From: Bacilli bacterium
GTDB taxonomy: Bacteria; Bacillota_I; Bacilli_A; RF39; UBA660
Assembly: GCA_028706395.1 (NCBI GenBank)
Contig: JAQWBL010000003.1
Span: 14,039-78,038 of the forward strand
Length of the DNA stretch: 64,000 bases
Reading direction: 5' to 3'
Position 1 is the stretch's first letter. Every line of letters starts with the position of its first letter. The position numbers were made by a program, and so were the translations under genes. The notes beneath the pieces are model-generated. The model ran no database searches. It was not told the DNA's origin and saw nothing but the letters and a program-made list of their open reading frames with translations. This document shows positions 1,174-12,559 of the stretch, piece by piece.

Positions 1174-1205
1174 AAAAGAACCTTAATAAACAAAGGTTCT
1201 TTTTT
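1174..1205. terminator. bidirectional intrinsic terminator between convergent genes
   Basis: AAAAGAACCTT (1174-1184) pairs perfectly with AAGGTTCTTTT (1193-1203), 8-nt loop. A-run lies before and T-run after the hairpin. Confidence 0.75.
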
Positions 1206-1209
1206 ATAA

Positions 1210-1677
1210 TTATTTTTTTTCTATAAGTTTTAGAGCCTTATCAATCGTTTCTTCCAAAGTTTCAAATATTTCTTTATTAGATTCCTTTTTATATAACCAA
1301 TCTAAATATTTTATTTTTTTTGCATTATTAGGACGTCCATATATAATTTTCTCTGGTTTTTTAGCAAGCCAATAACCAAACTCTACATTAGTAGTAAATG
1401 CTGGCATTTTTTCCAATTCCCTTGGCACCCAAAAAATTATGATTGTAGCATTTGTAAGAGCTTCTCTTTCTCATTCAGCTTGATCAATATAATCATTTTT
1501 ACGTATAAGCTCATCCTCTGGAATATATACAATTCCATCAAATTTTCTTTTCCTTAAATATTTGATTGCTTCAATTCTCCAAGAAATAGTATCTTCATCT
1601 CTTGGTGTTGGTCCAGCCAAAAATATTGAATTTTTATTACTAATAATAACATTCTTATCTGAATAATTTAGTTCCAT
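1210..1677 (-). pseudogene. nucleoside 2-deoxyribosyltransferase-like protein interrupted by one in-frame TGA
   Basis: ORFs 1471..1677 and 1210..1428 are in the same frame, separated only by TGA (1471-1473). The joined product is about 155 aa: ..SIFLAGPTPRDEDTISWRIEAIKYL..VYIPE..DYIDQAE-[TGA]-EREALTNATIIIFWVPRELEKMPAFTTNVEFGYW. This reads as one Nuc_deoxyri_tr2-type domain. SD AAGAGG precedes the ATG at 1677. Confidence 0.6.
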
Positions 1678-1721
1678 TGTTTACCTCTTTTCCTCTATGT
1701 TAATTATATATCATTTTAAAC

Positions 1722-1749
1722 AAAAAACGAACCACCTATTGGAAGTTCG
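1722..1749 (-). terminator. intrinsic terminator, candidate original tRNA-His terminator
   Basis: Minus strand reads CGAACTTCC-AATA-GGTGGTTCG followed by TTTTTTG (5 bp + 2x2 internal mismatch + 2 bp stem). It lies 6 nt beyond direct-repeat copy 1756-1769. Confidence 0.5.
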
Positions 1750-1755
1750 CTTCAA

Positions 1756-1769
1756 TTTCTTAATGGGGC
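1756..1769. repeat. 14-bp direct repeat, distal copy (TTTCTTAATGGGGC)
   Basis: Identical to 3519-3532 in the same orientation. The other copy overlaps the tRNA-His 3' end. Confidence 0.7.
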
Positions 1770-1806
1770 TTTAGTCATCTATTTTATCAACCCTATATCT
1801 CACTAG

Positions 1807-1890
1807 TTAAAAACACAATATCGCGTTTAATAGTGAAAGTCCAGCGATTTGAAGGAAATAAATTTGATTGTTGTTTGAATTTTCATTCAT
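1807..1890 (-). CDS. 27-aa hydrophobic micro-ORF downstream of heliorhodopsin
   Basis: Not in the ORF track (below 60 aa). ATG at 1888-1890 is preceded by GAGGGGA SD 4 nt upstream. Translation is MNENSNNNQIYFLQIAGLSLLNAILCF, TAA stop. Starts 36 nt after the heliorhodopsin stop. Confidence 0.35.
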   Translation of the reverse strand: MNENSNNNQIYFLQIAGLSLLNAILCF

Positions 1891-1926
1891 AATATCCCCT
1901 CATTTTTTCAAAAATATATATTTAAA

Positions 1927-2706
1927 CTATGGTTGCATTGCTCCAAATAAAACTAACCAAGCTAACGCTGTTTTAGCAACAAGACTAAGTATAATATAAA
2001 CTCTTTCTCCATATAAATAATCTTTCCACTTACCTACTTTTTTATATTGTAGAATCATATTAATTGGGAATGTATTAAAGGCAACAAAATATGTTGCAAC
2101 TATAGCCCATACAAACCATGGAACCATATCTAAATTACCATTTCCAAACATATATATTAATATTACTATCCAAGGAGTTAATCCAGCAATTGTTCCCCAT
2201 AAAAAGGGTTCCCAATTAACTTTCTTTTTATCTTCTCCTTTATTTAATTGTTCCATTACTAATCCAAATATATTCATTAATGCATTAACAACAAATATTA
2301 ATATTAATGAACTAATATCATATACTCCAAATAATGTAGCAATTAATACTATCATTATAGAAGATGATAAAGCATATTCTATCCATCTGAATTTATTGAT
2401 TCCTTCTTTTAAACCTTCAACATATTTTTCCTTTTTATAAACTATAAAGAAATGTGCGAATGCTGATATGAATAAAAACATTGATACTAAAATACCAAAT
2501 GGTAAATCAAATAATGGTTTAGAAGCTTGTTGTAATGATTGAGTAGCAGTATTATATTCGATGAATAATTTTGTTATTGTAGGTGAAAATTCTGCTATCT
2601 TACTTATAACTGAAGTTGCTAATAATAACATTATTATTGCTTGTATTAGATGTAAAAAACCCATGTTTCTATTAAATTTAATTAATTTTTCATATTTATC
2701 TTTCAT
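1927..2706 (-). CDS. heliorhodopsin (7-TM retinal protein, inverted-topology rhodopsin family)
   Basis: 259 aa. Full-length similarity to heliorhodopsin 48C12 as I recall it: FNRNMGFLHLIQ, FRWIEYALSSSIMIVLIA (E110 counterion position), IAGLTPWIVILIYM, GERVYIILSLVAKTALAW (K245 at the Schiff-base Lys position), plus H19 and H85. SD AGGAGG at 2711-2716. Confidence 0.9.
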   Translation of the reverse strand: MKDKYEKLIKFNRNMGFLHLIQAIIMLLLATSVISKIAEFSPTITKLFIEYNTATQSLQQASKPLFDLPFGILVSMFLFISAFAHFFIVYKKEKYVEGLKEGINKFRWIEYALSSSIMIVLIATLFGVYDISSLILIFVVNALMNIFGLVMEQLNKGEDKKKVNWEPFLWGTIAGLTPWIVILIYMFGNGNLDMVPWFVWAIVATYFVAFNTFPINMILQYKKVGKWKDYLYGERVYIILSLVAKTALAWLVLFGAMQP

Positions 2707-2714
2707 ATATCCTC

Positions 2715-2927
2715 CTATTTAATTAACATATAAAAATAATAAGTTATTGTTGATACTATATTAGATAATGAGAATCCCCATATTAAATCTATAATAGTAA
2801 TTTTTAATGACCATTCTTTTATTGTAGCTAAATTTATTAAATCAAATATTACCACCTTTCTTAACAAAACAAGGTATGAACTTGCTTGTTTTCTTTGAAT
2901 ATTCTTGAAATTCTTTATTATTCTCAT
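2715..2927 (-). CDS. hypothetical 70-aa protein (possible small membrane protein), doubtful
   Basis: ORF track only. No SD upstream of the ATG. The C-terminal half is hydrophobic (IIDLIWGFSLSNIVSTITYYFYMLI). Its TAG stop overlaps the heliorhodopsin SD. Confidence 0.25.
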   Translation of the reverse strand: MRIIKNFKNIQRKQASSYLVLLRKVVIFDLINLATIKEWSLKITIIDLIWGFSLSNIVSTITYYFYMLIK

Positions 2928-3117
2928 ATTTTTTTCTAATAAAGGTATTCCAGAAAAAAATACTAATAATTATGTAATCAATATTGGGCTTATTAAACCA
3001 CCTGTATACATTATATCATTTTTATGGCAAAAACTAAGTTTTACTTATGCAAATCTTAAATTTTAATAGATTTTCTTTCTAATTTCTATTTTCCTTTAAA
3101 ATTAAAATATGCTTTTG

Positions 3118-3335
3118 CTATTTCTTCAAATGATTCCTCTTTATGTTTTGAGATTGTTTATTATATTCTTTGTCATAGAAAAGATTTTCTATTGTTGCGT
3201 CTAATAAAATTAATAGTTTATACACTACATCTATTTTAGGTATAGTATTAACACTTTCAATTTGATTTATTTTTTTCTAGTAACTCCTAATTCCTTTGCT
3301 TAGTAATCTTGAGTTATATTTTTAGTTTTAAAAAA
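3118..3335 (-). pseudogene. decayed XRE-family helix-turn-helix repressor remnant
   Basis: Minus-strand frame reads FFKTKNITQDY*AKELGVTRKKINQIESVNTIPKIDVVYKLLILLDATIENLF.. This is the classic HTH_3 pattern, with TAA (3300-3302) where the conserved Leu (TTA) of 'eLA' belongs. No start codon; a stop lies immediately upstream (3336-3338). Confidence 0.55.
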
Positions 3336-3453
3336 TTATTTTATTTTATTTACTATCACTTTATCACCCTTTCTATTATACTGCGTAATGCTTTATTTTT
3401 AAAATGAGTAGTTTCAGTTACATAATTTGATCTGTTTTGTGTTTTTAAAGCAT

Positions 3454-3481
3454 AAAAAAAGAAGACTGCAAATATGCAATC
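3454..3481 (-). terminator. intrinsic terminator now following tRNA-His
   Basis: Minus strand reads GATTGCA-TATT-TGCAGTC (7-bp stem, 1 mismatch) followed by TTCTTTTTTT. Confidence 0.5.
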
Positions 3482-3518
3482 CCTTTATTTATAAGGCCCA
3501 TTTGATAATGAGCAGTAT

Positions 3519-3532
3519 TTTCTTAATGGGGC
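3519..3532. repeat. 14-bp direct repeat, tRNA-proximal copy (TTTCTTAATGGGGC)
   Basis: Covers the last 6 nt of tRNA-His (GCCCCA on the minus strand) plus the 8 nt downstream. Identical to 1756-1769. Confidence 0.7.
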
Positions 3533-3603
3533 GACTAGTGGGGATCGAACCCACGCATAACGGAACCACAATCCGCCGTGTTAACCACTTCACCATAGTC
3601 GCC
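3527..3603 (-). tRNA. tRNA-His (anticodon GTG)
   Basis: Minus strand GGCGACTATGGTGAAGTGGTTAACACGGCGGATTGTGGTTCCGTTATGCGTGGGTTCGATCCCCACTAGTCGCCCCA. Cloverleaf folds by hand; anticodon loop TTGTGGT; T-loop GGTTCGATCC. Encoded G-1 lies opposite C73 (His identity feature) and CCA is encoded. Confidence 0.9.
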
Positions 3604-3679
3604 ATGTATTAATATATTATCAAAAAAAGATTTAAAAAGCAACCTTTTTTGTTGTTTTCTTGAATATAGATTAAAGCCC

Positions 3680-3707
3680 ATACACTAATATCTTAATTTC
3701 ATACTAT
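3680..3707 (+). promoter_or_regulatory. possible mother-cell (sigma-E-like) promoter of the cotJ operon
   Basis: ATA (3680-3682), 17 nt, then CATACTAT (3700-3707) fits the ATA-N16-18-CATACAnT pattern. Lies 20 nt upstream of the cotJ start. B. subtilis cotJ is sigma-E dependent. Confidence 0.3.
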
Positions 3708-3726
3708 ATTTCGAGGAGGAATTTAG

Positions 3727-4149
3727 ATGAATAACTATCAAAATTATCCTAATAGCAATTATTACAAGAATATTAGTGATAATAATTATAATGCTACCAA
3801 TAATCTGTTTGACCCTTATACCGGTTTTATTCACGGTAATATGTTCCCATCCCTTTATGACCCTTACGAAATATCTAAACCATATGACATTCAACCACTT
3901 AATGATCAGGCACAGATGCTTACTTATATTGATGCTTTAAGTTTTGCAGCAATCGATTTAAATTTATATTTGGATGTTCACCCAGAAGATCGAAATATGC
4001 TTAATCTTTTCAATCAATATCGTACTCAATTAAATGATTTAAAGAAAGAATACGATTCAAAATATGGACCACTATTACTTAGTGGAGATTCATTAACTGC
4101 ATTTCCTTGGGCATGGAATAAGAAACCATGGCCATGGGAAAATAAATAG
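3727..4149 (+). CDS. cotJB: spore coat protein CotJB with an N-terminal CotJA-like extension (apparent CotJA-CotJB fusion)
   Basis: 140 aa. The C-terminal part shows the CotJB pattern LTYIDALSFAAIDLNLYLDVHPEDRNMLNLFNQY..YGPL..PWPWE. The N/Y-rich N-terminus ends in GNMFPSLYDPY, like the CotJA C-terminal motif. SD GAGGAGG; cotJC follows 10 nt later. Confidence 0.75.
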   Translation: MNNYQNYPNSNYYKNISDNNYNATNNLFDPYTGFIHGNMFPSLYDPYEISKPYDIQPLNDQAQMLTYIDALSFAAIDLNLYLDVHPEDRNMLNLFNQYRTQLNDLKKEYDSKYGPLLLSGDSLTAFPWAWNKKPWPWENK

Positions 4150-4159
4150 GAGGTAAATT

Positions 4160-4726
4160 ATGTGGATTTATGAAAAAAAACTTGAATATCCAATTAATAT
4201 AAAGCGTAAAGATACCGCAATGGCAAGATACTTGTTCGCACAGTACGGTGGCCCAGATGGTGAATTAGCGGCTGCTTTAAGATATTTAAATCAACGATAC
4301 ACAATGCCTGATGAACGAGGTAAAGCTTTATTAACTGATATTGGTACTGAGGAGATGGCGCATGTTGAAATGATTGCTACGATGATTTATCAATTAAGTG
4401 ATGATGCTTCAATTAAAGAATTTGAAGCTGCCGGTTTAGGTGGACATTATACTCAACATGATCATGCATTATTCCCAACTGATACTAATGGTGTACCTTT
4501 TACTTCAGCATATATTGAAGCAACTGGTGATTATTGGGCGGATTTAGAGAGTAACATGGCTGCTGAGCAAAGAGCTAGAGTGATGTATGAACATTTAATG
4601 AACGAAACCGATGATCCTGATGTTCTAGCACCCCTTTCATTCTTACGTCAAAGAGAAATTGTTCATTACACTAGATTTAAAGAGCTTCGCGATTACTATA
4701 TATCTAAATATAAAAGAAATACTTAA
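4160..4726 (+). CDS. cotJC: spore coat protein CotJC (manganese-catalase-like)
   Basis: 188 aa. YGGPDGELAAALRYLNQRY and GTEEMAHVEMIATMIYQL are typical of CotJC / Mn-catalase ferritin-like proteins. SD AGGAGG. Confidence 0.9.
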   Translation: MWIYEKKLEYPINIKRKDTAMARYLFAQYGGPDGELAAALRYLNQRYTMPDERGKALLTDIGTEEMAHVEMIATMIYQLSDDASIKEFEAAGLGGHYTQHDHALFPTDTNGVPFTSAYIEATGDYWADLESNMAAEQRARVMYEHLMNETDDPDVLAPLSFLRQREIVHYTRFKELRDYYISKYKRNT

Positions 4727-4751
4727 TTTTTAAGTATTTTTATTTACAAAA

Positions 4752-4775
4752 AAACTCTTATTAATATAAGAGTTT
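4752..4775. terminator. bidirectional terminator (cotJC / zinc-ribbon gene)
   Basis: AAACTCTTAT-taat-ATAAGAGTTT, a perfect 10-bp stem flanked by A-run and T-run. Confidence 0.8.
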
Positions 4776-4795
4776 AAATATTCATTATTTTATGA

Positions 4796-5020
4796 TTATT
4801 TATCTGTTCTGTATGCAAACGTACTATTTGAATCATTTCTTTTGAAATCATTTCTATTATTACGTTCTGCTTTTCTCTTAGCACGATCTTCTGGGCATCT
4901 TGCTGGTGGATTAGTAAATCCTTTTTCATCATAGAACGCTTGTTCTCCAGATGTCCAAACAAATTCTTTTCCACAATCTTTACAAATTAGAGTAATATCA
5001 TTGTATTCTTTATTTTCCAT
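4796..5020 (-). CDS. small zinc-ribbon protein with basic C-terminal tail
   Basis: 74 aa. CKDCGKEFVWTSGEQAFYDEKGF..PARCPEDR resembles the conserved 'probable zinc-ribbon' small-protein family. SD AAGGAGG. The overlapping ORF 4774..4974 is ignored. Confidence 0.6.
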   Translation of the reverse strand: MENKEYNDITLICKDCGKEFVWTSGEQAFYDEKGFTNPPARCPEDRAKRKAERNNRNDFKRNDSNSTFAYRTDK

Positions 5021-5191
5021 TTCGTAACCTCCTTTTTCGATTTGATTTAATACTTATTTGGGACTCCAAGAATTGGGAAGTAACGAAATAATTTTTAAAC
5101 CAATAATAATATAACACATCACTAATTAATATGCAAGTGTTTCGGCTATTTATACTTAATATTATAACTATTTATTAAAATTATTCATTTT

Positions 5192-6574
5192 TTATGCTTC
5201 CATAAGTTTATTAATAGATGAGCTTATTTTCGTGATAATATCACTAATTTCTTCTTCAGTTAATTCACTAACTAAAATTGTATTACCAATATTCTCACCT
5301 ATATCAGCACCTTTACTTATTTTTGATTGATCAACAAAACCGATACTAATTAATTCTTTTCCTTGCTTTGCAACTTTAATATTGAAATCCTTAATAACAG
5401 TATATTCAATATTTTGAGTAATAGTTTCATAATTTAATATAAATTTACCAATTATTGTATAATCTGTATTTATAAGATTTAAAGTAAAGATATAATCTTC
5501 TAAAAACTTTTCACCATTAATTGTTAAAATGGTATTGTCGGATAGCTTAATATTTATAATAAACTTATCAGGTTCTAATTTAAACGAAAATCTAAAAACA
5601 ACTTTATTGTTACTAAATAATTCAATAATATCTTCGCTACCAATAGTATAAACAATTTTTTCATCGACTCCATTTATTAATTCCATCATCACAATTTCAT
5701 TTGATAAATCCTTGTAATATACTGAAAACTCTATGTTTTTAGCACCCTTATTATCATCCATATCATTTTTTAATTCTATATTATATCTCTTTAATATATC
5801 TAAAGCTTTCTCATCCTTATTCACATAATCTATAATTTTTTTATATAATTCTTTTTGTTCATTTGGAGTTATTAATAAAGTTATTTTCTTAACACTTAAT
5901 TCTTTATTGTTTATACTAATATTTACTTTTGCATTTTTTATATTAGCTTCATTTAGATTTTCTAAAAAACTTTTTTTAATCAAATCACCTAGATAATTAA
6001 TTTCTTCAATTATTTTAGTAGTATTAGCTTCCTCTAACTTTTCGATTGTTCCAACTTCAATATATTTTTCATATATATTTTTCAAAAATAAATATTGCTT
6101 ATTTTGAATACTATAAAAATTTACATTAAACAATTCTTCTCTTTCTAAACTACCCAATATATTAAATATTGTTTTTTTATTAATCAAATCTTTTTCATGC
6201 TTATAAGTTATTTTTGTTTTATTAAGATTATTAATAATTGTTTTAGTGTTTTCATCTATTTCTTCACTATTTAATTTAATATCTAACAATATATCCCCAA
6301 CCGTTGTGGTATTTCCTTCAATATTAATATTACTTATTAATGGTTCATATAAATACTCAAGATTTCCTGTTATTTTTTCCATTCCTTTAATTAATAATCT
6401 TTTAGGACTAGAATATATTAAATAAAATGCACTAAAAAGGATTACTATAATTATTAGCAATGTTAACCCAATTGATAAAGAATTAATTCTTTTTCGTTTG
6501 TTTTTTGGTTTAATTATTTCATCGTCAAATGATATATCAATAATTTCAATATCTAGGTCATTATTTTCCTTCAT
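5192..6574 (-). CDS. hypothetical membrane-anchored protein (one N-terminal TM, large extracytoplasmic domain)
   Basis: Track ORF 5192..6610. I prefer the ATG at 6572-6574 (MKENNDLD..), which has SD AAAGGAGAA. TM segment is LSIGLTLLIIIVILFSAFYLIY. No recognisable family. Confidence 0.6.
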   Translation of the reverse strand: MKENNDLDIEIIDISFDDEIIKPKNKRKRINSLSIGLTLLIIIVILFSAFYLIYSSPKRLLIKGMEKITGNLEYLYEPLISNINIEGNTTTVGDILLDIKLNSEEIDENTKTIINNLNKTKITYKHEKDLINKKTIFNILGSLEREELFNVNFYSIQNKQYLFLKNIYEKYIEVGTIEKLEEANTTKIIEEINYLGDLIKKSFLENLNEANIKNAKVNISINNKELSVKKITLLITPNEQKELYKKIIDYVNKDEKALDILKRYNIELKNDMDDNKGAKNIEFSVYYKDLSNEIVMMELINGVDEKIVYTIGSEDIIELFSNNKVVFRFSFKLEPDKFIINIKLSDNTILTINGEKFLEDYIFTLNLINTDYTIIGKFILNYETITQNIEYTVIKDFNIKVAKQGKELISIGFVDQSKISKGADIGENIGNTILVSELTEEEISDIITKISSSINKLMEA

Positions 6575-6700
6575 AATATTCTCCTTTATTATATAAGTAT
6601 AGCACAACAATTTTTTAATATCTTTAATTTATAATTTTCTTCATGTCAATAATTTGTTAATTATAATATTAATCTCATATACTATATCGAGGTGTGTAAA

Positions 6701-7699
6701 TTGAAAAAGGTTTTACTATTATGTGGTGGCCGATCAACAGAACATTATATTTCATGCTTATCAGCTATAACAATAATTGAAAACATTGATAAACAAAAAT
6801 ATGAATTAACAACTGTAATAATTGATGAATCAAACCGTTTCTATGTTTTTAATGATGATCCATCATATTTACAAAATGGGACATGGAGGGAATCTGAAAA
6901 TATTCATTTAATCTCTAATATAATCACTTATTTATCTAAGTTTGACATTATCTTTCCTATTACCCATGGTAATAATGGAGAAGACGGCAAATTACAAGGT
7001 TTTTTAGACTTGTTTGATATTAAATATGTCGGCTCAAAAACGTTGGCTAGTGCCCTTGGTATGGACAAAAGAATGGCTAAAATTATTTTTAATCATTTAG
7101 AAATCCCTCAAGTACCATATATTACTTTTACTTATCCTAATTATTCAATAAAAGAAATAAAAAAACAATTGAACTATCCGGTAATTGTTAAACCAGCCAA
7201 CGGTGGTTCATCTATTGGAATTACTAAAGCTAACAATAAAAAAGAATTAACCACGGCAATCGAAGTTGCTAGTAATTATGATGATATCATTATTGTTGAA
7301 AAATTTATTAAAGCCAAAGAACTAGAATGTTCAGTTATTGAACATAAAAAGCTAATAGCATCAACTATTGGAGAAATAGTACCTGCTAATGAATTTTATG
7401 ATTATAATGCGAAATATGAAAACAATACATCACAAACCATTATTCCCGCCATTATTCCTAAAAATATTTCATCACTAATTAAGGATTATGCTAAAAAGGC
7501 CTTCATAGGGATTGGAGCTAGCGGATTTTCACGTGTTGATTTCTTCTACGATGAAGAAAATAATCAAGTATATCTTAATGAAATAAATACTATCCCAGGA
7601 TTTACAACTATTAGTATGTTTCCCCAATTATTAATGTTTGATACTATAAGTATCACGGAAATTATTAGTATTTTAATAGAAAACGAATTAAAAAGATAG
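6701..7699 (+). CDS. ddl: D-alanine--D-alanine ligase
   Basis: LLCGGRSTEH, GEDGKLQGFLD, VKPANGGSSIGI, LNEINTIPGFT. The track starts at GTG 6692, but SD GAGGTG (6689-6694) is spaced 6 nt from TTG 6701, so TTG is the likelier start. Confidence 0.9.
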   Translation: MKKVLLLCGGRSTEHYISCLSAITIIENIDKQKYELTTVIIDESNRFYVFNDDPSYLQNGTWRESENIHLISNIITYLSKFDIIFPITHGNNGEDGKLQGFLDLFDIKYVGSKTLASALGMDKRMAKIIFNHLEIPQVPYITFTYPNYSIKEIKKQLNYPVIVKPANGGSSIGITKANNKKELTTAIEVASNYDDIIIVEKFIKAKELECSVIEHKKLIASTIGEIVPANEFYDYNAKYENNTSQTIIPAIIPKNISSLIKDYAKKAFIGIGASGFSRVDFFYDEENNQVYLNEINTIPGFTTISMFPQLLMFDTISITEIISILIENELKR

Positions 7700-7715
7700 A
7701 TCTTACGATCTATCT
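7694..7715. terminator. bidirectional terminator shared by convergent ddl and typA
   Basis: AGATAGATC-ttac-GATCTATCT, a perfect 9-bp stem. It contains both stop codons (ddl TAG 7697-7699; typA TAG 7714-7716). Confidence 0.75.
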
Positions 7716-9522
7716 ATTTTCTACTATCAAATTTCTTTCTTTCATTAGTATTTAAAATTTTCTTTCTTAATCTAATATTTTGTGGGGTTATTTCAACCAA
7801 TTCATCACTATTAATATAATCTAAAGCATACTCAAGAGTAATTGGACGTGGACGTTTTAAAACAACTGTTTTATCACTACCAGCAGCACGCATATTAGTT
7901 AATTGTTTTCCCTTAACAACGTTAACTGCTAAATCATTTTCACGGTTACATTCACCAACAATCATACCTTCATATACTTCAGTTCCTGGTTCAATAAACA
8001 TAATTCCACGATCTTCTAATTGACCTATTCCATAAGCTGAGGCTTTTCCGTTTTCCATTGATACTAAAACACCAAGTTTTCTTTCACCAATTTCATGTAT
8101 CTCAACTGGTAAATATTCTTTAAAAGTATGGTTTAAAATTCCATATCCTTTTGTCATTGTCATAAATACCGTTCTAAAACCAATCAGACCTCGTGATGGA
8201 ATAACATAATTTAATCGAACTTGTCCATTAATATTAAGCATATTAGACATTGTTCCTCCACGAACCCCTAAATTTTCAATAACCGTTCCAACACTTTCTT
8301 CTGGAACATCCATTTGTAAATCTTCATAAGGTTCATATTTTTTACCATCTATTTCTTTAATAATAACTTGTGGTTTTGATACTTCTAATTCAAAACCTTC
8401 ACGACGCATATTTTCAATTAAGATAGATAAATGTAATTCTCCACGACCGGATACAATCCAAGACTCTGAATCATTTTGTTCGACACGTAAACTTACATCA
8501 CTTTCCGTTTGTTTAAATAAACGTTCTTCGATTTTTCTAGCTGTTAATAATTTTCCGTCTTTTCCATTAAAAGGACTGCTATTAACTCCAAAAGTCATTT
8601 GTAAGGTTGGTTCATCAATTCTTAAATGAGGTAAAGCTTCTTCTTTACCAACATTACATAAAGTCTCACCAACACTAATATCTGATAATCCAGCAACTGC
8701 TACAATATCCCCAGCATGAGCTTCGTTTATCTCAACTCTATGAAGTCCAAAGAAACCAAATAATTTTTGAATACGAAATTGTTTGATACTTCCATCTAAT
8801 CTAACACAAGAAACCATTTCATTAACTTTGATAGTTCCTCTTTTAACTAAACCAATTCCAATTCTTCCAACATAATCATTATAATCTAAAAGTGCTGGTT
8901 GGAACTGTAATGTTCCTTCACTTACTCTTGGAGCCGGGATATAATTAATAATCATATCTAAAATAGGATCCATCGTATCTTCTTGATCCTCAACTTTAGG
9001 ACTCAAGCTACTGGTACCAGCTAACCCTGAAGCATAAATTACTGGAAAGTCTAATTGATCTATGTCTGCGCCTAATTCAATAAATAGGTCTAAAACTTCA
9101 TCAACCACTTCTTTTGGTCTAGCTGTTTCTTTATCAATCTTATTAACAACTACAATTGGTGTTACTTTTGCTTCTAATGCTTTTTTTAAAACAAACCTTG
9201 TTTGAGGCATGGTTCCCTCATAAGCATCAACAACTAATAAAACGCCATCAACCATATTCATAATACGTTCAACTTCGCCCCCAAAGTCAGCATGACCTGG
9301 AGTATCTAAAATATTAATTCTAAAATCTTTATAATTAATTGCTGTTGTCTTTGATAAGATTGTAATTCCACGTTCCTTTTCAATATCATTGGAATCCATT
9401 ACTCTTTTTCCAACAACTTCATTTTCTCTAAATGTTCCTGATTTTTGCAATAATTTATCAACTAATGTTGTTTTACCATGGTCAACATGGGCGATTATTG
9501 CAATATTTCTAATGTTTTTCAT
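7714..9522 (-). CDS. typA: translational GTPase TypA/BipA
   Basis: AIIAHVDHGKTTLVD, DTPGHADFGGEVER, NKIDK. Start moved to the ATG at 9520-9522 (MKNIRNIAII), which has SD AGAGGAAG and lies downstream of the predicted promoter. Confidence 0.95.
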   Translation of the reverse strand: MKNIRNIAIIAHVDHGKTTLVDKLLQKSGTFRENEVVGKRVMDSNDIEKERGITILSKTTAINYKDFRINILDTPGHADFGGEVERIMNMVDGVLLVVDAYEGTMPQTRFVLKKALEAKVTPIVVVNKIDKETARPKEVVDEVLDLFIELGADIDQLDFPVIYASGLAGTSSLSPKVEDQEDTMDPILDMIINYIPAPRVSEGTLQFQPALLDYNDYVGRIGIGLVKRGTIKVNEMVSCVRLDGSIKQFRIQKLFGFFGLHRVEINEAHAGDIVAVAGLSDISVGETLCNVGKEEALPHLRIDEPTLQMTFGVNSSPFNGKDGKLLTARKIEERLFKQTESDVSLRVEQNDSESWIVSGRGELHLSILIENMRREGFELEVSKPQVIIKEIDGKKYEPYEDLQMDVPEESVGTVIENLGVRGGTMSNMLNINGQVRLNYVIPSRGLIGFRTVFMTMTKGYGILNHTFKEYLPVEIHEIGERKLGVLVSMENGKASAYGIGQLEDRGIMFIEPGTEVYEGMIVGECNRENDLAVNVVKGKQLTNMRAAGSDKTVVLKRPRPITLEYALDYINSDELVEITPQNIRLRKKILNTNERKKFDSRK

Positions 9523-9546
9523 AAATACACTTCCTCTAACTGGCAT

Positions 9547-9576
9547 ATTATATCATATCCTGTTAAAACATGTAAA
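9547..9576 (-). promoter_or_regulatory. sigma-A-type promoter of typA
   Basis: Minus strand reads TTTACA (9571-9576), 18 nt, TATAAT (9547-9552). Confidence 0.5.
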
Positions 9577-9627
9577 CAAAAACATGAAATATCTTTTTTC
9601 ACATTGACAATTAACTTATTAAAATCT

Positions 9628-10362
9628 TTATTCCAACACGTCTTTCGGGGAAATATCCCTATTTCTTTCAAAAACAACGAGCTTGTTGTCAATATCTACT
9701 GTAGCCAATAATATTCTTTCATAATCTTTATAACCTTGTTTTTTAAGTTCCTTTAATAACCAATCTTCACTTTTTTTAATAATTTTCAAATTATTATTCA
9801 TTAATTTGCTATCAATAATTACATTCGCACATAATCCTTGTTTTTGAATTGGTAGATTCATATCTTCAATTACTAATGGTTTATATTTCCCTTTAGGTAA
9901 AATACTTAAAGTACCATTTACCTCCATAATCGCATATTCAATTTCAGATATATCAAAAAAGCCTTTAGCACGACATTCTTCTAATAAATCATTAATATCT
10001 AGCTTAACCTTAATCATATTTTTTTCTAATAGTTTTCCATCCTGAATCATAATTGTTGGCGTTCCCATAAAAAATCGTCTTAATTTAATGCTCTTGAGAG
10101 TAGCGTAAGATACAAGATAAGCCATTACCCCAAAAACAACTACTGCTAAAATACCATTTAAATAATGAGATTCTAGATTAATAGTCATTTCAGCCGCAAA
10201 ATTACCTATTGATATTCCAATTACATAATCAAACAAACTTAATTGCGATACTTGCTTTTTTCCAAGCATTTTAGTTATTAAAAATAATGTAACTAGTGAT
10301 AACATTGCTCTGATAAATACATCGAACAACTCTACCCAGTTAACATCGACCAGATCACTCAT
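9628..10362 (-). CDS. DUF421 (YetF/YrbG-type) membrane protein
   Basis: 244 aa. LGKKQVSQLSLFDYVIGISIGNFAAE and EIEYAIMEVNGTLSILPK match the B. subtilis YetF-family pattern. Confidence 0.8.
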   Translation of the reverse strand: MSDLVDVNWVELFDVFIRAMLSLVTLFLITKMLGKKQVSQLSLFDYVIGISIGNFAAEMTINLESHYLNGILAVVVFGVMAYLVSYATLKSIKLRRFFMGTPTIMIQDGKLLEKNMIKVKLDINDLLEECRAKGFFDISEIEYAIMEVNGTLSILPKGKYKPLVIEDMNLPIQKQGLCANVIIDSKLMNNNLKIIKKSEDWLLKELKKQGYKDYERILLATVDIDNKLVVFERNRDISPKDVLE

Positions 10363-10409
10363 AATATATCACCATTTTTAGTATCAATAAAAAAAAGGAT
10401 TTTATACCT

Positions 10410-11483
10410 TTATTTGTTTTTTCTAAATTTGAAACCTTTAGTTATCTTTTCTTTTAAATCTTCGTGACTGATAATAACATCTGTTTTCAAAATAAAAGTT
10501 AAGACAATAATAATAAGTAGTCCATATATAATATAACCAACTGATGATTTTAATATATACACAATTGATGCAACAGCAAATAAAATATTAATTACATAAA
10601 TAATAAGCACTACTGTTTGTTGACTTAAATTACGTTTTAGTAATTGATGATGAATATGATATTTATCAGGTGTCGAAATACTTTGACCTTTAATAAACCT
10701 TCTTAAAATCGCAAAAATAACATCAAGAATAGGAATGGCTAATATCAACAATGGAACAATCAATGATGTCATTGTAACATTTTTAAATCCTAAAAGAGCG
10801 ATAACTGAAATAATAAAACCTAAAAACATTGAGCCACTATCTCCCATAAAGATACTAGCGGGATAAAAATTATGAACTAAAAATCCGAGAGTAGAACCTA
10901 ACATAGTAAATGTTAAAACAAAATCTAATCCCGTTTTTTGTTGAATAACGGCAATTATTCCAATTGTTAAAAAGTAAATTGAACTTATTCCACCTGCTAA
11001 ACCATCTAGTCCATCAATAAAATTCATACAATTAATACATCCGAGAATAAAAAAGATTGTTAATGGATAAGTTAAAAACCCAAAATGAATATATATTCCA
11101 AAGGCACTAATATCTTGCAATAAAATATTACCATAAAATACAACTACACATGCAGCAATTAATTGACCAATAAACTTGGTCGATGATTTAAGTGGTTTAA
11201 TATCGTCAACAACACCTGTCAATACAATAATAAAACTACCGATTAAAACAGCATTCATAATTGAACTTGGTTCACCAAAAATCATATAACCAAGTAAAAA
11301 ACCTAAATAAATACCTAATCCGCCTAATCTCGGAATTGGTACTTTATGAACCTTTCTCTCATTTGGAATATCCATAGCCCCAATATGAAGGGCAACCTTT
11401 TTAATAAAAGGAATAATAAATGCTACGAATAGTAGAGTTGAAAAAACCATTAAAAATATGTATGAGATGTTCTCATTAGTCAT
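10410..11483 (-). CDS. tagO: undecaprenyl-phosphate GlcNAc-1-phosphate transferase (TagO/WecA, MraY-like)
   Basis: 357 aa, polytopic. PNERKVHKVPIPRLGGLGIY, NFIDGLDGLAGG, FMGDSGSMFLGF. Confidence 0.85.
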   Translation of the reverse strand: MTNENISYIFLMVFSTLLFVAFIIPFIKKVALHIGAMDIPNERKVHKVPIPRLGGLGIYLGFLLGYMIFGEPSSIMNAVLIGSFIIVLTGVVDDIKPLKSSTKFIGQLIAACVVVFYGNILLQDISAFGIYIHFGFLTYPLTIFFILGCINCMNFIDGLDGLAGGISSIYFLTIGIIAVIQQKTGLDFVLTFTMLGSTLGFLVHNFYPASIFMGDSGSMFLGFIISVIALLGFKNVTMTSLIVPLLILAIPILDVIFAILRRFIKGQSISTPDKYHIHHQLLKRNLSQQTVVLIIYVINILFAVASIVYILKSSVGYIIYGLLIIIVLTFILKTDVIISHEDLKEKITKGFKFRKNK

Positions 11484-11506
11484 TTATATCACCACTCTAA
11501 TTTTAG

Positions 11507-11545
11507 CAAAAAAAATAATATAAGTCTACAAATTAAACTTATATT
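11507..11545 (-). terminator. intrinsic terminator after mbl
   Basis: AATATAAGT / ACTTATATT, 9-bp stem (11517-11545), followed on the minus strand by a 9-nt T-run. Confidence 0.7.
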
Positions 11546-11560
11546 ATCTTAACCTAACTT

Positions 11561-12559
11561 TTATTTGTCAATTAAATGAATATTTTCTAATAGAAGGCCT
11601 GTCCCTTCAACAACACAAGTAAGTGGACTTTCAGCAATAAAGACGGGAACTTTTAATTCGTGAGATAAAAGTTGATCAAATCCTTCAATTAAAGCTCCAC
11701 CACCAGTAACAACAATACCTTTATCAATAATATCAGCAGATAATTCCGGAGGTGTTTGTTCCAATACATTTTTAGCCGTATGAACAATCATATAAACACT
11801 TTCGCGCAAAGCCTCTTCAACTTCTAATGAACAAATTGTTATAGTATGTGGTAATCCCGTAACTAAGTCACGACCTCTAACTTCCATTTTTTCGTTTTTG
11901 TCGTTTGGAAAGACAGTACCAATTGTCATTTTAATTTCTTCAGCTGTTCTATCCCCAATTAATAATTTATATTTTTCTTTAATATATTTCATAATATCCG
12001 CATCAAAAACATTACCAGCAACCTTAATAGATGAATTTGTAACAATTCCCCCTAATGAAAGAATCGCAATATCAGTAGTTCCCCCACCAATGTCGATAAC
12101 CATATTACCGCTTGGTTTAGAAATATCCATTCCCGCACCAATTGCTGCAACTTTAGGCTCGTCCTCTAAAAAAACTTTTTTTGCTCCGGTTCTCTCAGCA
12201 GCTTCTTTAATCGCATTTTTCTCAACTTGGGTAATATTAGAAGGACAACATATTAAAATTCTTGGTCTTGAAAAAAAACTACGACCATTTACTTTTCTAA
12301 TAAAATGATTAAGCATAATTTCAGTAATTTCAAAATCTGCTATAACTCCATCTTTCATTGGTCTGATTGCTTTAACCTTTCCCGGTGTACGACCAAGCAT
12401 ATCTCTAGCTTCTTTACCAACTGCCAATGGCTTTTTTGTTTCCGAATCAATTGCAACAACACTTGGTTCATTTAAGACAATACCTTGGCCTTTAATATGA
12501 ATAAGTACGTTCGCTGTACCTAAATCAAGTCCAATATCCTTTGAAAACATATTAAACAT
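11561..12559 (-). CDS. mbl: actin-like rod-shape protein MreB/Mbl
   Basis: DIGLDLGTANVLIHIKGQGIVLNEPSVVA, DIGGGTTDIA. Position directly downstream of spoIIID matches B. subtilis mbl. Confidence 0.9.
   Translation of the reverse strand: MFNMFSKDIGLDLGTANVLIHIKGQGIVLNEPSVVAIDSETKKPLAVGKEARDMLGRTPGKVKAIRPMKDGVIADFEITEIMLNHFIRKVNGRSFFSRPRILICCPSNITQVEKNAIKEAAERTGAKKVFLEDEPKVAAIGAGMDISKPSGNMVIDIGGGTTDIAILSLGGIVTNSSIKVAGNVFDADIMKYIKEKYKLLIGDRTAEEIKMTIGTVFPNDKNEKMEVRGRDLVTGLPHTITICSLEVEEALRESVYMIVHTAKNVLEQTPPELSADIIDKGIVVTGGGALIEGFDQLLSHELKVPVFIAESPLTCVVEGTGLLLENIHLIDK

Follow-up and report, generated by a model that had tools for sequence, protein, structure and literature searches.

Islands that grow beside tRNA genes have been described in several bacterial lineages. 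In 'Ca. Actinomarinales', additive flexible genomic islands arise by insertion of cassettes at tRNA genes, with direct repeats of a piece of the tRNA as their mark (PMC7771536), and in the Firmicutes, cis-mobilizable elements (CIMEs) are decayed integrative and conjugative elements (ICEs) or integrative and mobilizable elements (IMEs) retaining attL and attR after the genes for integration and transfer have been lost (PMC5704250). Here we examine a heliorhodopsin gene located next to tRNA-His in a 64-kb stretch of DNA (the window) from an uncultured low-GC Bacilli bacterium. Positions 1756–3532 of the window are probably the remnant of a small integrative element, which would have been inserted site-specifically at the GCCCCA end of tRNA-His and would since have lost its recombinase, if it had one; we put the probability of this reading at roughly 0.7. 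A recombinase, either acting in trans or since lost, presumably did the inserting. The known logic of tRNA-targeted islands suffices for this locus, which is a genuine tRNA-linked insertion of an ordinary kind.

The locus is similar to the Actinomarinales islands (PMC7771536) in having small cassettes beside a single-copy tRNA, a repeat of the tRNA end at the far end, content that varies between close relatives and cassettes that cross genera. It differs from them in its host (uncultured low-GC Bacilli), its target (tRNA-His) and its repeat, made up of the 6 terminal nucleotides of the tRNA together with trailer sequence. What is carried differs as well, namely heliorhodopsin in the window and defence genes in its relatives; in the Actinomarinales, heliorhodopsin resides at a fixed, non-island locus (PMC7771536). 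As in the tycheposons of Prochlorococcus (bioRxiv 10.1101/2020.12.28.424599), tRNA-proximal islands have expanded as one integration after another shifted earlier elements inward, the units are separated by partial copies of the tRNA, and degenerate remnants occur together with niche-adaptive or defence cargo. Tycheposons, however, are defined by an integrase (a tyrosine or serine recombinase) and replication modules, both of which are absent here. The likeness to CIMEs (PMC5704250) lies in the Firmicutes host, the presence of att-like repeats where a conserved gene has its 3' end, the lack of an integrase and tandem accretion, and by analogy an incoming element may be able to mobilise such units. 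Repeat copies are kept at both ends and genes for integration and transfer are absent, as in a CIME, whereas a parental ICE or IME sharing the att site was not encountered and the elements are far smaller (1.3–4.2 kb). Finally, arrays in two relatives (L020 and L046; L-numbers denote loci of relatives, 98 loci having been compared, and P-numbers denote heliorhodopsin homologues) resemble integron gene cassettes in their one-gene units, short conserved spacers that look like recombination sites and strain-variable content. In contrast to integrons, no IntI-type integrase lies beside these arrays, attC architecture is absent, the units bring their own terminator and promoter, and the array begins at a tRNA gene. 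Because the recombinases that define tycheposons and integrons are absent, filing the locus as either is impossible.

Insertion at the tRNA-His 3' end

Syntenic loci of close relatives were reached via homologues of the ATP-grasp protein encoded on the left flank. In two independent assemblies (L092 and L093), which share 97% identity with the window in both CotJC and BipA and 89.5% in the flanks (range 87–90%), the ATP-grasp gene is followed by 130 bp with a single bidirectional hairpin (T0) and then by tRNA-His and cotJB; heliorhodopsin, the XRE-type regulator and the deoxyribosyltransferase-like gene that accompany it in the window are all missing at this tRNA-His site. Homology between the window and L092 stops at position 3518, and 115 bp of L092 are unaligned between its two homology blocks with the window. 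A third relative, L091 (98% identity in CotJB and CotJC, 92% in the flanks), has the order ATP-grasp gene, T0 hairpin, GCTCTA, a short arm R', heliorhodopsin, XRE remnant, trailer P', tRNA-His and cotJB. T0, which abuts the tRNA in L092, sits 1.3 kb away from it in L091, behind GCTCTA, a degenerate form of GCCCCA. L091 and L092 are a classic pair of occupied and empty sites. The initial annotation of this DNA had proposed insertion exactly at the tRNA-His 3' end and had suggested looking for an empty site in relatives. Both points are borne out, with L092 and L093 carrying nothing at the site and L091 and the window being occupied.

The two boundaries of the cassette share a 14-nt direct repeat, TTTCTTAATGGGGC, on which that proposal was built. 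It occurs exactly twice in the window, in the same orientation, and its placement and its overlap with the tRNA were verified (Table 1); a third copy is absent from the window even with up to one mismatch, 0.02 copies being expected for this fixed word. The window holds 26 exact direct repeats of at least 14 nt that are not of low complexity and are spaced within 5 kb, and the chance that such a repeat touches either of two tRNA 3' ends, as estimated from this count, is about 0.04. Taken by itself, the 14-nt repeat is weak evidence, suggestive of insertion and not decisive. One could accordingly suppose that the 14-mer arose by chance near a tRNA in an AT-rich genome and that the heliorhodopsin region is ancestral and was lost in some relatives, a view to which the 26 comparable pairs and the mere 6 nt within the tRNA lend some weight. 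Such a coincidence is very improbable in view of the clean empty site in L092 and L093, the displaced native trailer in L091, the homologous element ends of L020, the recurrence of the GCCCCA-initiated repeat in five other species (L012, L046, L058, L063 and L084) and the xenology of the heliorhodopsin, which are treated here and below. The insertion is beyond chance because of this comparative evidence from related genomes, not because of the repeat alone.

The limits first given to the cassette, 1756–3532, agree with the element ends P and R that are common to L020 and L091 (Table 1). They fall short of the full insert as measured against the empty site, which additionally takes in the distal repeat, the hairpin at 1722–1749 and the deoxyribosyltransferase-like pseudogene. 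Both hairpins that had been noted are real: the one between the repeat copies is the terminator of P (3483–3462 in the terminator scan), which follows a first hairpin at 3496–3513 and is itself followed by a T-run, and the one just outside the distal copy folds together with its T-run (1749–1713) at −17.2 kcal/mol (z −3.7). An Rfam search of the P and D trailers returned no RNA family besides the tRNA. The terminator behind the ATP-grasp gene has a stem different from that of T0, and the orthology of the two is by position and flanking similarity only.

Table 1. Features of the tRNA-His insert and its target in the window
Feature	Position	Strand	Description and evidence
Whole window-specific segment relative to the empty site L092/L093	1156-3517	.	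2.36 kb; between blastn blocks 2-1155 and 3518-11998
tRNA-His (GTG)	3527-3602	-	Target gene; CCA end encoded; ARAGORN; Rfam tRNA 62.5 bits
Proximal repeat copy	3519-3532	-	GCCCCA (last 6 nt of tRNA, encoded CCA included) + TTAAGAAA (8 nt of trailer); attL-like junction
Left end P	3450-3526	-	Two-hairpin trailer, now terminates tRNA-His; terminator scan, fold, homology to L020 and L091
XRE-type helix-turn-helix (HTH) regulator pseudogene	3118-3359	-	Two TAA stops and one frameshift in an A-run
DUF1295 (steroid-reductase-like) 3'-end remnant	2845-2995	-	TAA stop and 1-nt frameshift; 5' ~600 bp missing; blastn, alignment
DUF2177 remnant	2715-2844	-	Last ~43 codons; Pfam PF09945 positions 80-123 of 124
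Heliorhodopsin	1927-2706	-	Sole intact gene of the insert; Pfam PF18761, E 1e-94
Right end R	1770-1850	-	Non-coding arm abutting the distal GCCCCA; homology to L020, weaker copy in L091
Distal repeat copy	1756-1769	-	Displaced tRNA-His 3' end GCCCCA and trailer start; attR-like junction
D trailer	1691-1755	-	Terminator hairpin 1722-1749, T-run 1713-1721, TATAAT box; alignment, nhmmer, fold
Nucleoside 2-deoxyribosyltransferase-like pseudogene	1210-1677	-	PF15891; in-frame TGA 1471-1473
Bidirectional terminator	1174-1203	.	After the ATP-grasp gene; positional counterpart of the T0 hairpin of L092/L091

Shared ends and stacked units across the clade

In L020, a 1.49-Mb chromosome whose CotJC is 74% identical to that of the window, tRNA-His is followed by P, two D12 adenine methylase genes, a gene for an HNH protein, R, and GCCCCA with D. 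The window copy of P differs from L020 12767–12843 at 6 of 77 positions, and on the R side window 1850–1713 and L020 16850–16985 are 82% identical over 138 nt, a block that ends in GCCCCATTAAAGAAAT and the hairpin. The P and R ends are more conserved than vertically inherited intergenic DNA should be, because the 5' flank of the tRNA cannot be aligned between the window and L020. Judged from these alignments, both cassette ends recur around unrelated cargo (restriction-modification) in a distant host. P is also present in L091, and R is present there more weakly.

The D trailer lies directly 3' of tRNA-His in L094 and L046, and displaced D copies are found in L020. In L094, an intact homologue of the deoxyribosyltransferase-like gene lies ~430 nt downstream of tRNA-His and D. 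The insert of the window holds two units, namely the element bounded by P and R, and then D with the deoxyribosyltransferase-like pseudogene. The hairpin at 1722–1749 had been regarded as the original trailer of tRNA-His, which is in keeping with its place in L094 and L046; the further expectation that it would form the trailer of the empty site did not hold, since the closest relatives use another hairpin, T0.

A broader survey comprised 80 cotJC-anchored loci taken from GTDB species representatives, 58 of which contain tRNA-His, mostly just upstream of cotJB. In L012, L063, L046 and L084, the tRNA end and its own trailer are repeated 0.8–3.2 kb downstream over 32, 29, ~65 and ~50 nt, respectively, and these repeats, like that of the window, all begin at GCCCCA. 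Displaced copies number three in L020, two in L046 and one in L058 (GCCCCA plus a terminator-type trailer unlike the tRNA's own). GCCCCA in tRNA orientation occurs 22 times within 6 kb downstream of tRNA-His versus 8–12 times in three controls. The copies in L020 and L046 bound one- or two-gene units, some of which close with a second conserved arm, R2 (TGTGYCYATTGRWATATTGCCCCA). The L020 array consists of P, restriction-modification genes and R; D1, a beta-lactamase-like gene and R2; D2, a nitroreductase gene and R2; and D3 and onward. The L046 array consists of D1, a 268-aa gene and R2; a T0-like trailer, a 387-aa gene and an R2-like arm; and D2, followed by core genes. At L020 16930–18640 and L046 6770–9345, one-gene units (including a lipoprotein gene in L020) are split by repeats made of GCCCCA, a terminator and TATAAT. 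Across the relatives the cargo includes AbiJ, an ApeA-like HEPN protein, MazF, PDC-M30A, restriction-modification, beta-lactamase-like and nitroreductase genes, which is typical island cargo and consists mostly of anti-phage genes.

These arrays invite comparison with an integron-like platform, in which tRNA-His would capture small integrase-less cassettes, each composed of a trailer or terminator with a promoter, one to three genes and a short conserved arm with GCCCCA at its end; the cassettes would be inserted, excised and reshuffled by a dedicated recombinase whose gene lies elsewhere in the genome. The arrangement of units in L020 and L046 is of this kind, R2 is confined to these two arrays among the 98 loci, and trailer types P, D and T0 are each found both attached to the tRNA and displaced. 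However, no recombinase gene adjoins any array, and the sole strong structure is an ordinary terminator hairpin, with no attC-like fold demonstrated. The pattern concerns few cassettes and few genomes, and tandem accretion of decayed elements gives the same pattern (PMC5704250; bioRxiv 10.1101/2020.12.28.424599), so that such a platform seems quite unlikely. It is likewise doubtful that the tRNA-His 3' end of this clade serves as a dedicated capture site for tiny integrase-less cassettes that a recombinase encoded elsewhere inserts, stacks and exchanges, with heliorhodopsin as one circulating cargo. The R2 arm and the D hairpin were also considered as an inverted repeat around a core, which fails at L046 +915, where the trailer is of another type.

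Several observations weigh against a site-specifically inserted element, the reading that we prefer. The tRNA part makes up 6 of the 14 nt of the repeat, fewer than a classical tRNA att site would have, and the remaining 8 bases belong to the trailer, which starts in a similar way, NNNNGAAAT, in many relatives; the 14-nt identity may in part reflect this conserved trailer start and not a crossover core. The arm upstream of the distal GCCCCA has no significant resemblance to a tRNA, and as a candidate decayed T-arm and acceptor it gave alignments no better than shuffles in 10 cases. The two-hairpin architecture of P follows tRNA-His in many relatives too, and D with the deoxyribosyltransferase-like pseudogene has no recognisable right-end repeat before 1203. 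Neither a tyrosine nor a serine recombinase was found in or next to the island of the window, L091, L020, L046, L012, L063, L058 or L084, and a Pfam search of 162 open reading frames (ORFs) downstream of tRNA-His gave, among its top families, no recombinase besides large serine recombinases. Nor was a circular or free form found, exact-pattern scans of IMG/VR giving 0 matches for P, R and R2.

Recombinases deserve a closer look. As the initial annotation stated, no integrase gene survives between 1156 and 3517, where neither ORFs nor Pfam reveal one, and no recombinase was found in any of the nine islands examined. Serine recombinases are absent from the whole 64-kb window and from the L091, L020, L046, L012 and L063 islands; tyrosine recombinases were not specifically searched for in the remainder of the window. 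Large serine recombinases are encoded near tRNA-His only in L009, L030, L040, L043 and L056. In L009 (6877–8727) and L056 (2257–4008), where they are intact, and in L030 (5157–6593) and L040 (6072–7553), where they are split, they share the strand of tRNA-His and lie ~0.5 kb downstream of it; in L043 they are farther off. In L056 the gene has a 92-aa ORF before it and a reverse-transcriptase-like ORF of 469 aa after it. A resident serine recombinase as the general enzyme was not supported, as it is found in only five loci, is broken in L030 and L040 and showed no link to the GCCCCA repeats. The elements of L009 and L056 showed no P or R ends, and the serine-recombinase elements are probably separate mobile or defence elements that use the same neighbourhood. 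A search for the same cassette with an intact integrase elsewhere had been suggested. No integrase-bearing element with P and R ends was found in the 98 loci, IMG/VR or the Joint Genome Institute (JGI) contigs; a single scan of JGI metagenomes for the D pattern gave one chance match, L090.

The surroundings of tRNA-His have further features in common. The order tRNA-His (minus strand), cotJB and cotJC is kept in most of the 80 relatives. Two-hairpin trailers occur in L009, L010, L011, L019, L022, L024, L043, L044, L056, L058 and L081 as well as at window 3450–3526, with a plan of a first hairpin, a TTATGATAAAT-like spacer and a terminator hairpin; their stems vary and most start with the trailer sequence given above. 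Such a trailer could act as a signal for processing or itself be a small RNA that is processed. The N-terminus of CotJB (window 3727–4149) weakly matches CotJA (PF11007, E 0.0015) and a separate cotJA ORF is not present, which suggests a cotJA-cotJB fusion. Relatives also carry two paralogous genes for small treble-clef zinc fingers (zf_Tbcl, 67% identical), one on each side of tRNA-His and cotJ; zf_Tbcl genes are located at 4796–5020 (minus strand) in the window, 9124–9312 in L091 and 8506–8694 in L092.

Heliorhodopsin and the probable history of the insert

The heliorhodopsin gene, correctly recognised from the outset, matches PF18761 with 316.7 bits (cut-off 26.7), residues 8–257 covering profile positions 1–242 of 242, so that the protein is full-length for its family. 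A lysine that is a candidate for the retinal-binding residue of the last helix lies in SLVAKTALAW near the C-terminus, as read directly from the sequence, not from an alignment to a solved structure. Homologues number in the thousands, and an exact-sequence look-up of the window protein retrieved no record. Its closest relatives, P0002, P0004, P0005 and P0007, are 86–90% identical at the amino acid level (90% to P0002, found in L001–L006), and all are encoded in a three-gene module DUF1295-DUF2177-heliorhodopsin. DUF1295 and DUF2177 are intact beside these closest heliorhodopsins (L001–L008 and L098), the surroundings vary, and no linkage to tRNA-His is seen for any of the four or for P0003. 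DUF2177 and DUF1295, along with DegV, are published as characteristic neighbours of heliorhodopsin (bioRxiv 10.1101/2021.02.16.431466), and the window gene derives from a DUF1295-DUF2177-heliorhodopsin operon.

In contrast to that published neighbourhood, the partners in the window have been destroyed while heliorhodopsin is intact. Window 1928–2844 is 81–87% identical in DNA to the heliorhodopsin and DUF2177 end of the L001–L008 loci, and blastn matches 2833–2995 to their DUF1295 3' end at 76–87%. A 255-bp deletion took the DUF1295 stop and the DUF2177 start with ~85 codons and fused the two remnants. The repaired DUF1295 remnant, of which the last ~40 residues are left, matches PF06966 at 1e-8, and a full-length DUF2177 or DUF1295 gene upstream of heliorhodopsin is absent. 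The 70-codon ORF (2715–2927) that had been listed is thus a chimera in which the DUF1295 3' end runs into the final codons of DUF2177, and the 27-codon ORF (1807–1890), which has no Pfam match and can be aligned with L020 only up to 1850, is probably spurious. With a ratio of nonsynonymous to synonymous divergence (dN/dS) of 0.09 against L001, heliorhodopsin appears to have been kept by purifying selection since its two usual partners were destroyed, as seen at this locus and with copies elsewhere in the genome not excluded. L091 and the genome of L020 (locus L089) also have heliorhodopsin without adjacent partners. More generally, heliorhodopsin genes at L089 8001–8780, L091 11386–12165 and L096 1220–1999 occupy differing loci, often with DUF1295 and DUF2177 not adjacent. 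Heliorhodopsin is common in these metagenome-assembled genomes of Bacilli/'Tenericutes', including anaerobic-digester and gut-derived assemblies, and is present in organisms of apparently dark habitats.

The other genes of the insert are broken as well. The decayed XRE-type repressor that had been reported beside the tRNA is no longer an intact ORF, and matches HTH_3 at 2e-8 once its lesions are repaired; L091 has the same pseudogene with different lesions. In the deoxyribosyltransferase-like gene, the internal TGA stands where homologues keep a conserved tryptophan (QAEWEREAL). Genetic code 4 was ruled out as an explanation, as 7 of the window's 61 long ORFs end in TGA. The genome uses TGA as an ordinary stop, and the gene is therefore a pseudogene with a TGG-to-TGA change. 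It is absent from L091 and L092. Together with DUF1295 and DUF2177, four genes of the insert are decayed.

The comparison with L091 indicates that the insert is a mosaic. The two loci are co-linear at ~92% identity from position 3175, within the 3' end of the XRE remnant, through the tRNA and beyond. Their heliorhodopsins, at the same locus, are 70% identical at the amino acid level, with dS 1.38 and dN 0.21, compared with dS 0.17–0.44 and dN 0.009–0.048 in the flanking genes. By this measure of divergence, the window heliorhodopsin is a foreign allele, xenologous to the L091 gene at the same site. The stretch of R, D and pseudogene in the window is 80–82% identical to L020 and L094, above the ~70–72% of core DNA. 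The initial annotation had seen the signature of site-specific integration and a fossil element that delivered a light sensor. Insertion at the tRNA end, decay and the heliorhodopsin cargo all stand, and site-specific recombination is the likely process; a single clean delivery does not stand, since the P and XRE part fits L091 while the DNA leftward of ~3175 is foreign and carries the xenologous heliorhodopsin.

A mosaic of this kind might also result if RecA-dependent homologous recombination swapped the content between tRNA-His and the ATP-grasp gene as a flexible island, without any site-specific enzyme. The anchors would then be the tRNA-His/cotJ side and shared backbone pieces, and the GCCCCA copies would be passengers from donor tRNA-His loci, not att sites. 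Besides the breakpoint at ~3175 and the 80–82% resemblance to L020 and L094, the lack of a recombinase in the islands examined and the range of repeat lengths from 6 to ~65 nt, unlike a fixed target duplication, are in favour of such exchange. However, homologous exchange is expected to give variable left boundaries, often with more of the tRNA, whereas every displaced copy, in seven genomes whose trailers are otherwise unrelated, begins at one and the same tRNA position, and the junctions of L091 and L092 differ precisely at the tRNA end. Moreover, the same two ends surround unrelated cargo in hosts whose core DNA is ~70% identical, which is too diverged for efficient homologous recombination. 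Exchange of island content by this route alone is unlikely.

Under the preferred reading, a site-specifically inserted element, the left end P would have given tRNA-His a new trailer and terminator, and the right end R would abut the second GCCCCA. The exchangeable cargo between P and R would comprise the dead XRE regulator and the truncated DUF1295-DUF2177-heliorhodopsin operon. Beyond the element, a second unit would follow, made of a displaced D-type tRNA-His trailer and the deoxyribosyltransferase-like pseudogene, and then the terminator hairpin behind the ATP-grasp gene, at the position of the lineage's own terminator. In the order of events that we infer, P and the XRE remnant would already have been present in the ancestor common to the window and L091, and the stretch from ~3175 to ~1204 would later, in one of the two lineages, have given way to DNA that came from a different lineage's occupied tRNA-His site and brought the present heliorhodopsin module. 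The replacement probably took place via homologous recombination within the element backbone. Because no gene other than those of the heliorhodopsin module is shared between the window and the L001–L008 contigs, the donor lineage of the heliorhodopsin could not be placed.

From these results tRNA-His emerges as a hot spot of insertion in the clade, where elements with conserved ends and no recombinase raise the question of which enzyme moves them. Two sister genomes, those of the window and L091, carry xenologous heliorhodopsins at an identical site. The selection on heliorhodopsin despite the loss of DUF1295 and DUF2177, with other genomic copies not excluded, bears on the proposal that these proteins function jointly. 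Heliorhodopsin, a light sensor of debated function, moves between uncultured Bacilli as cargo of a tRNA-linked island.

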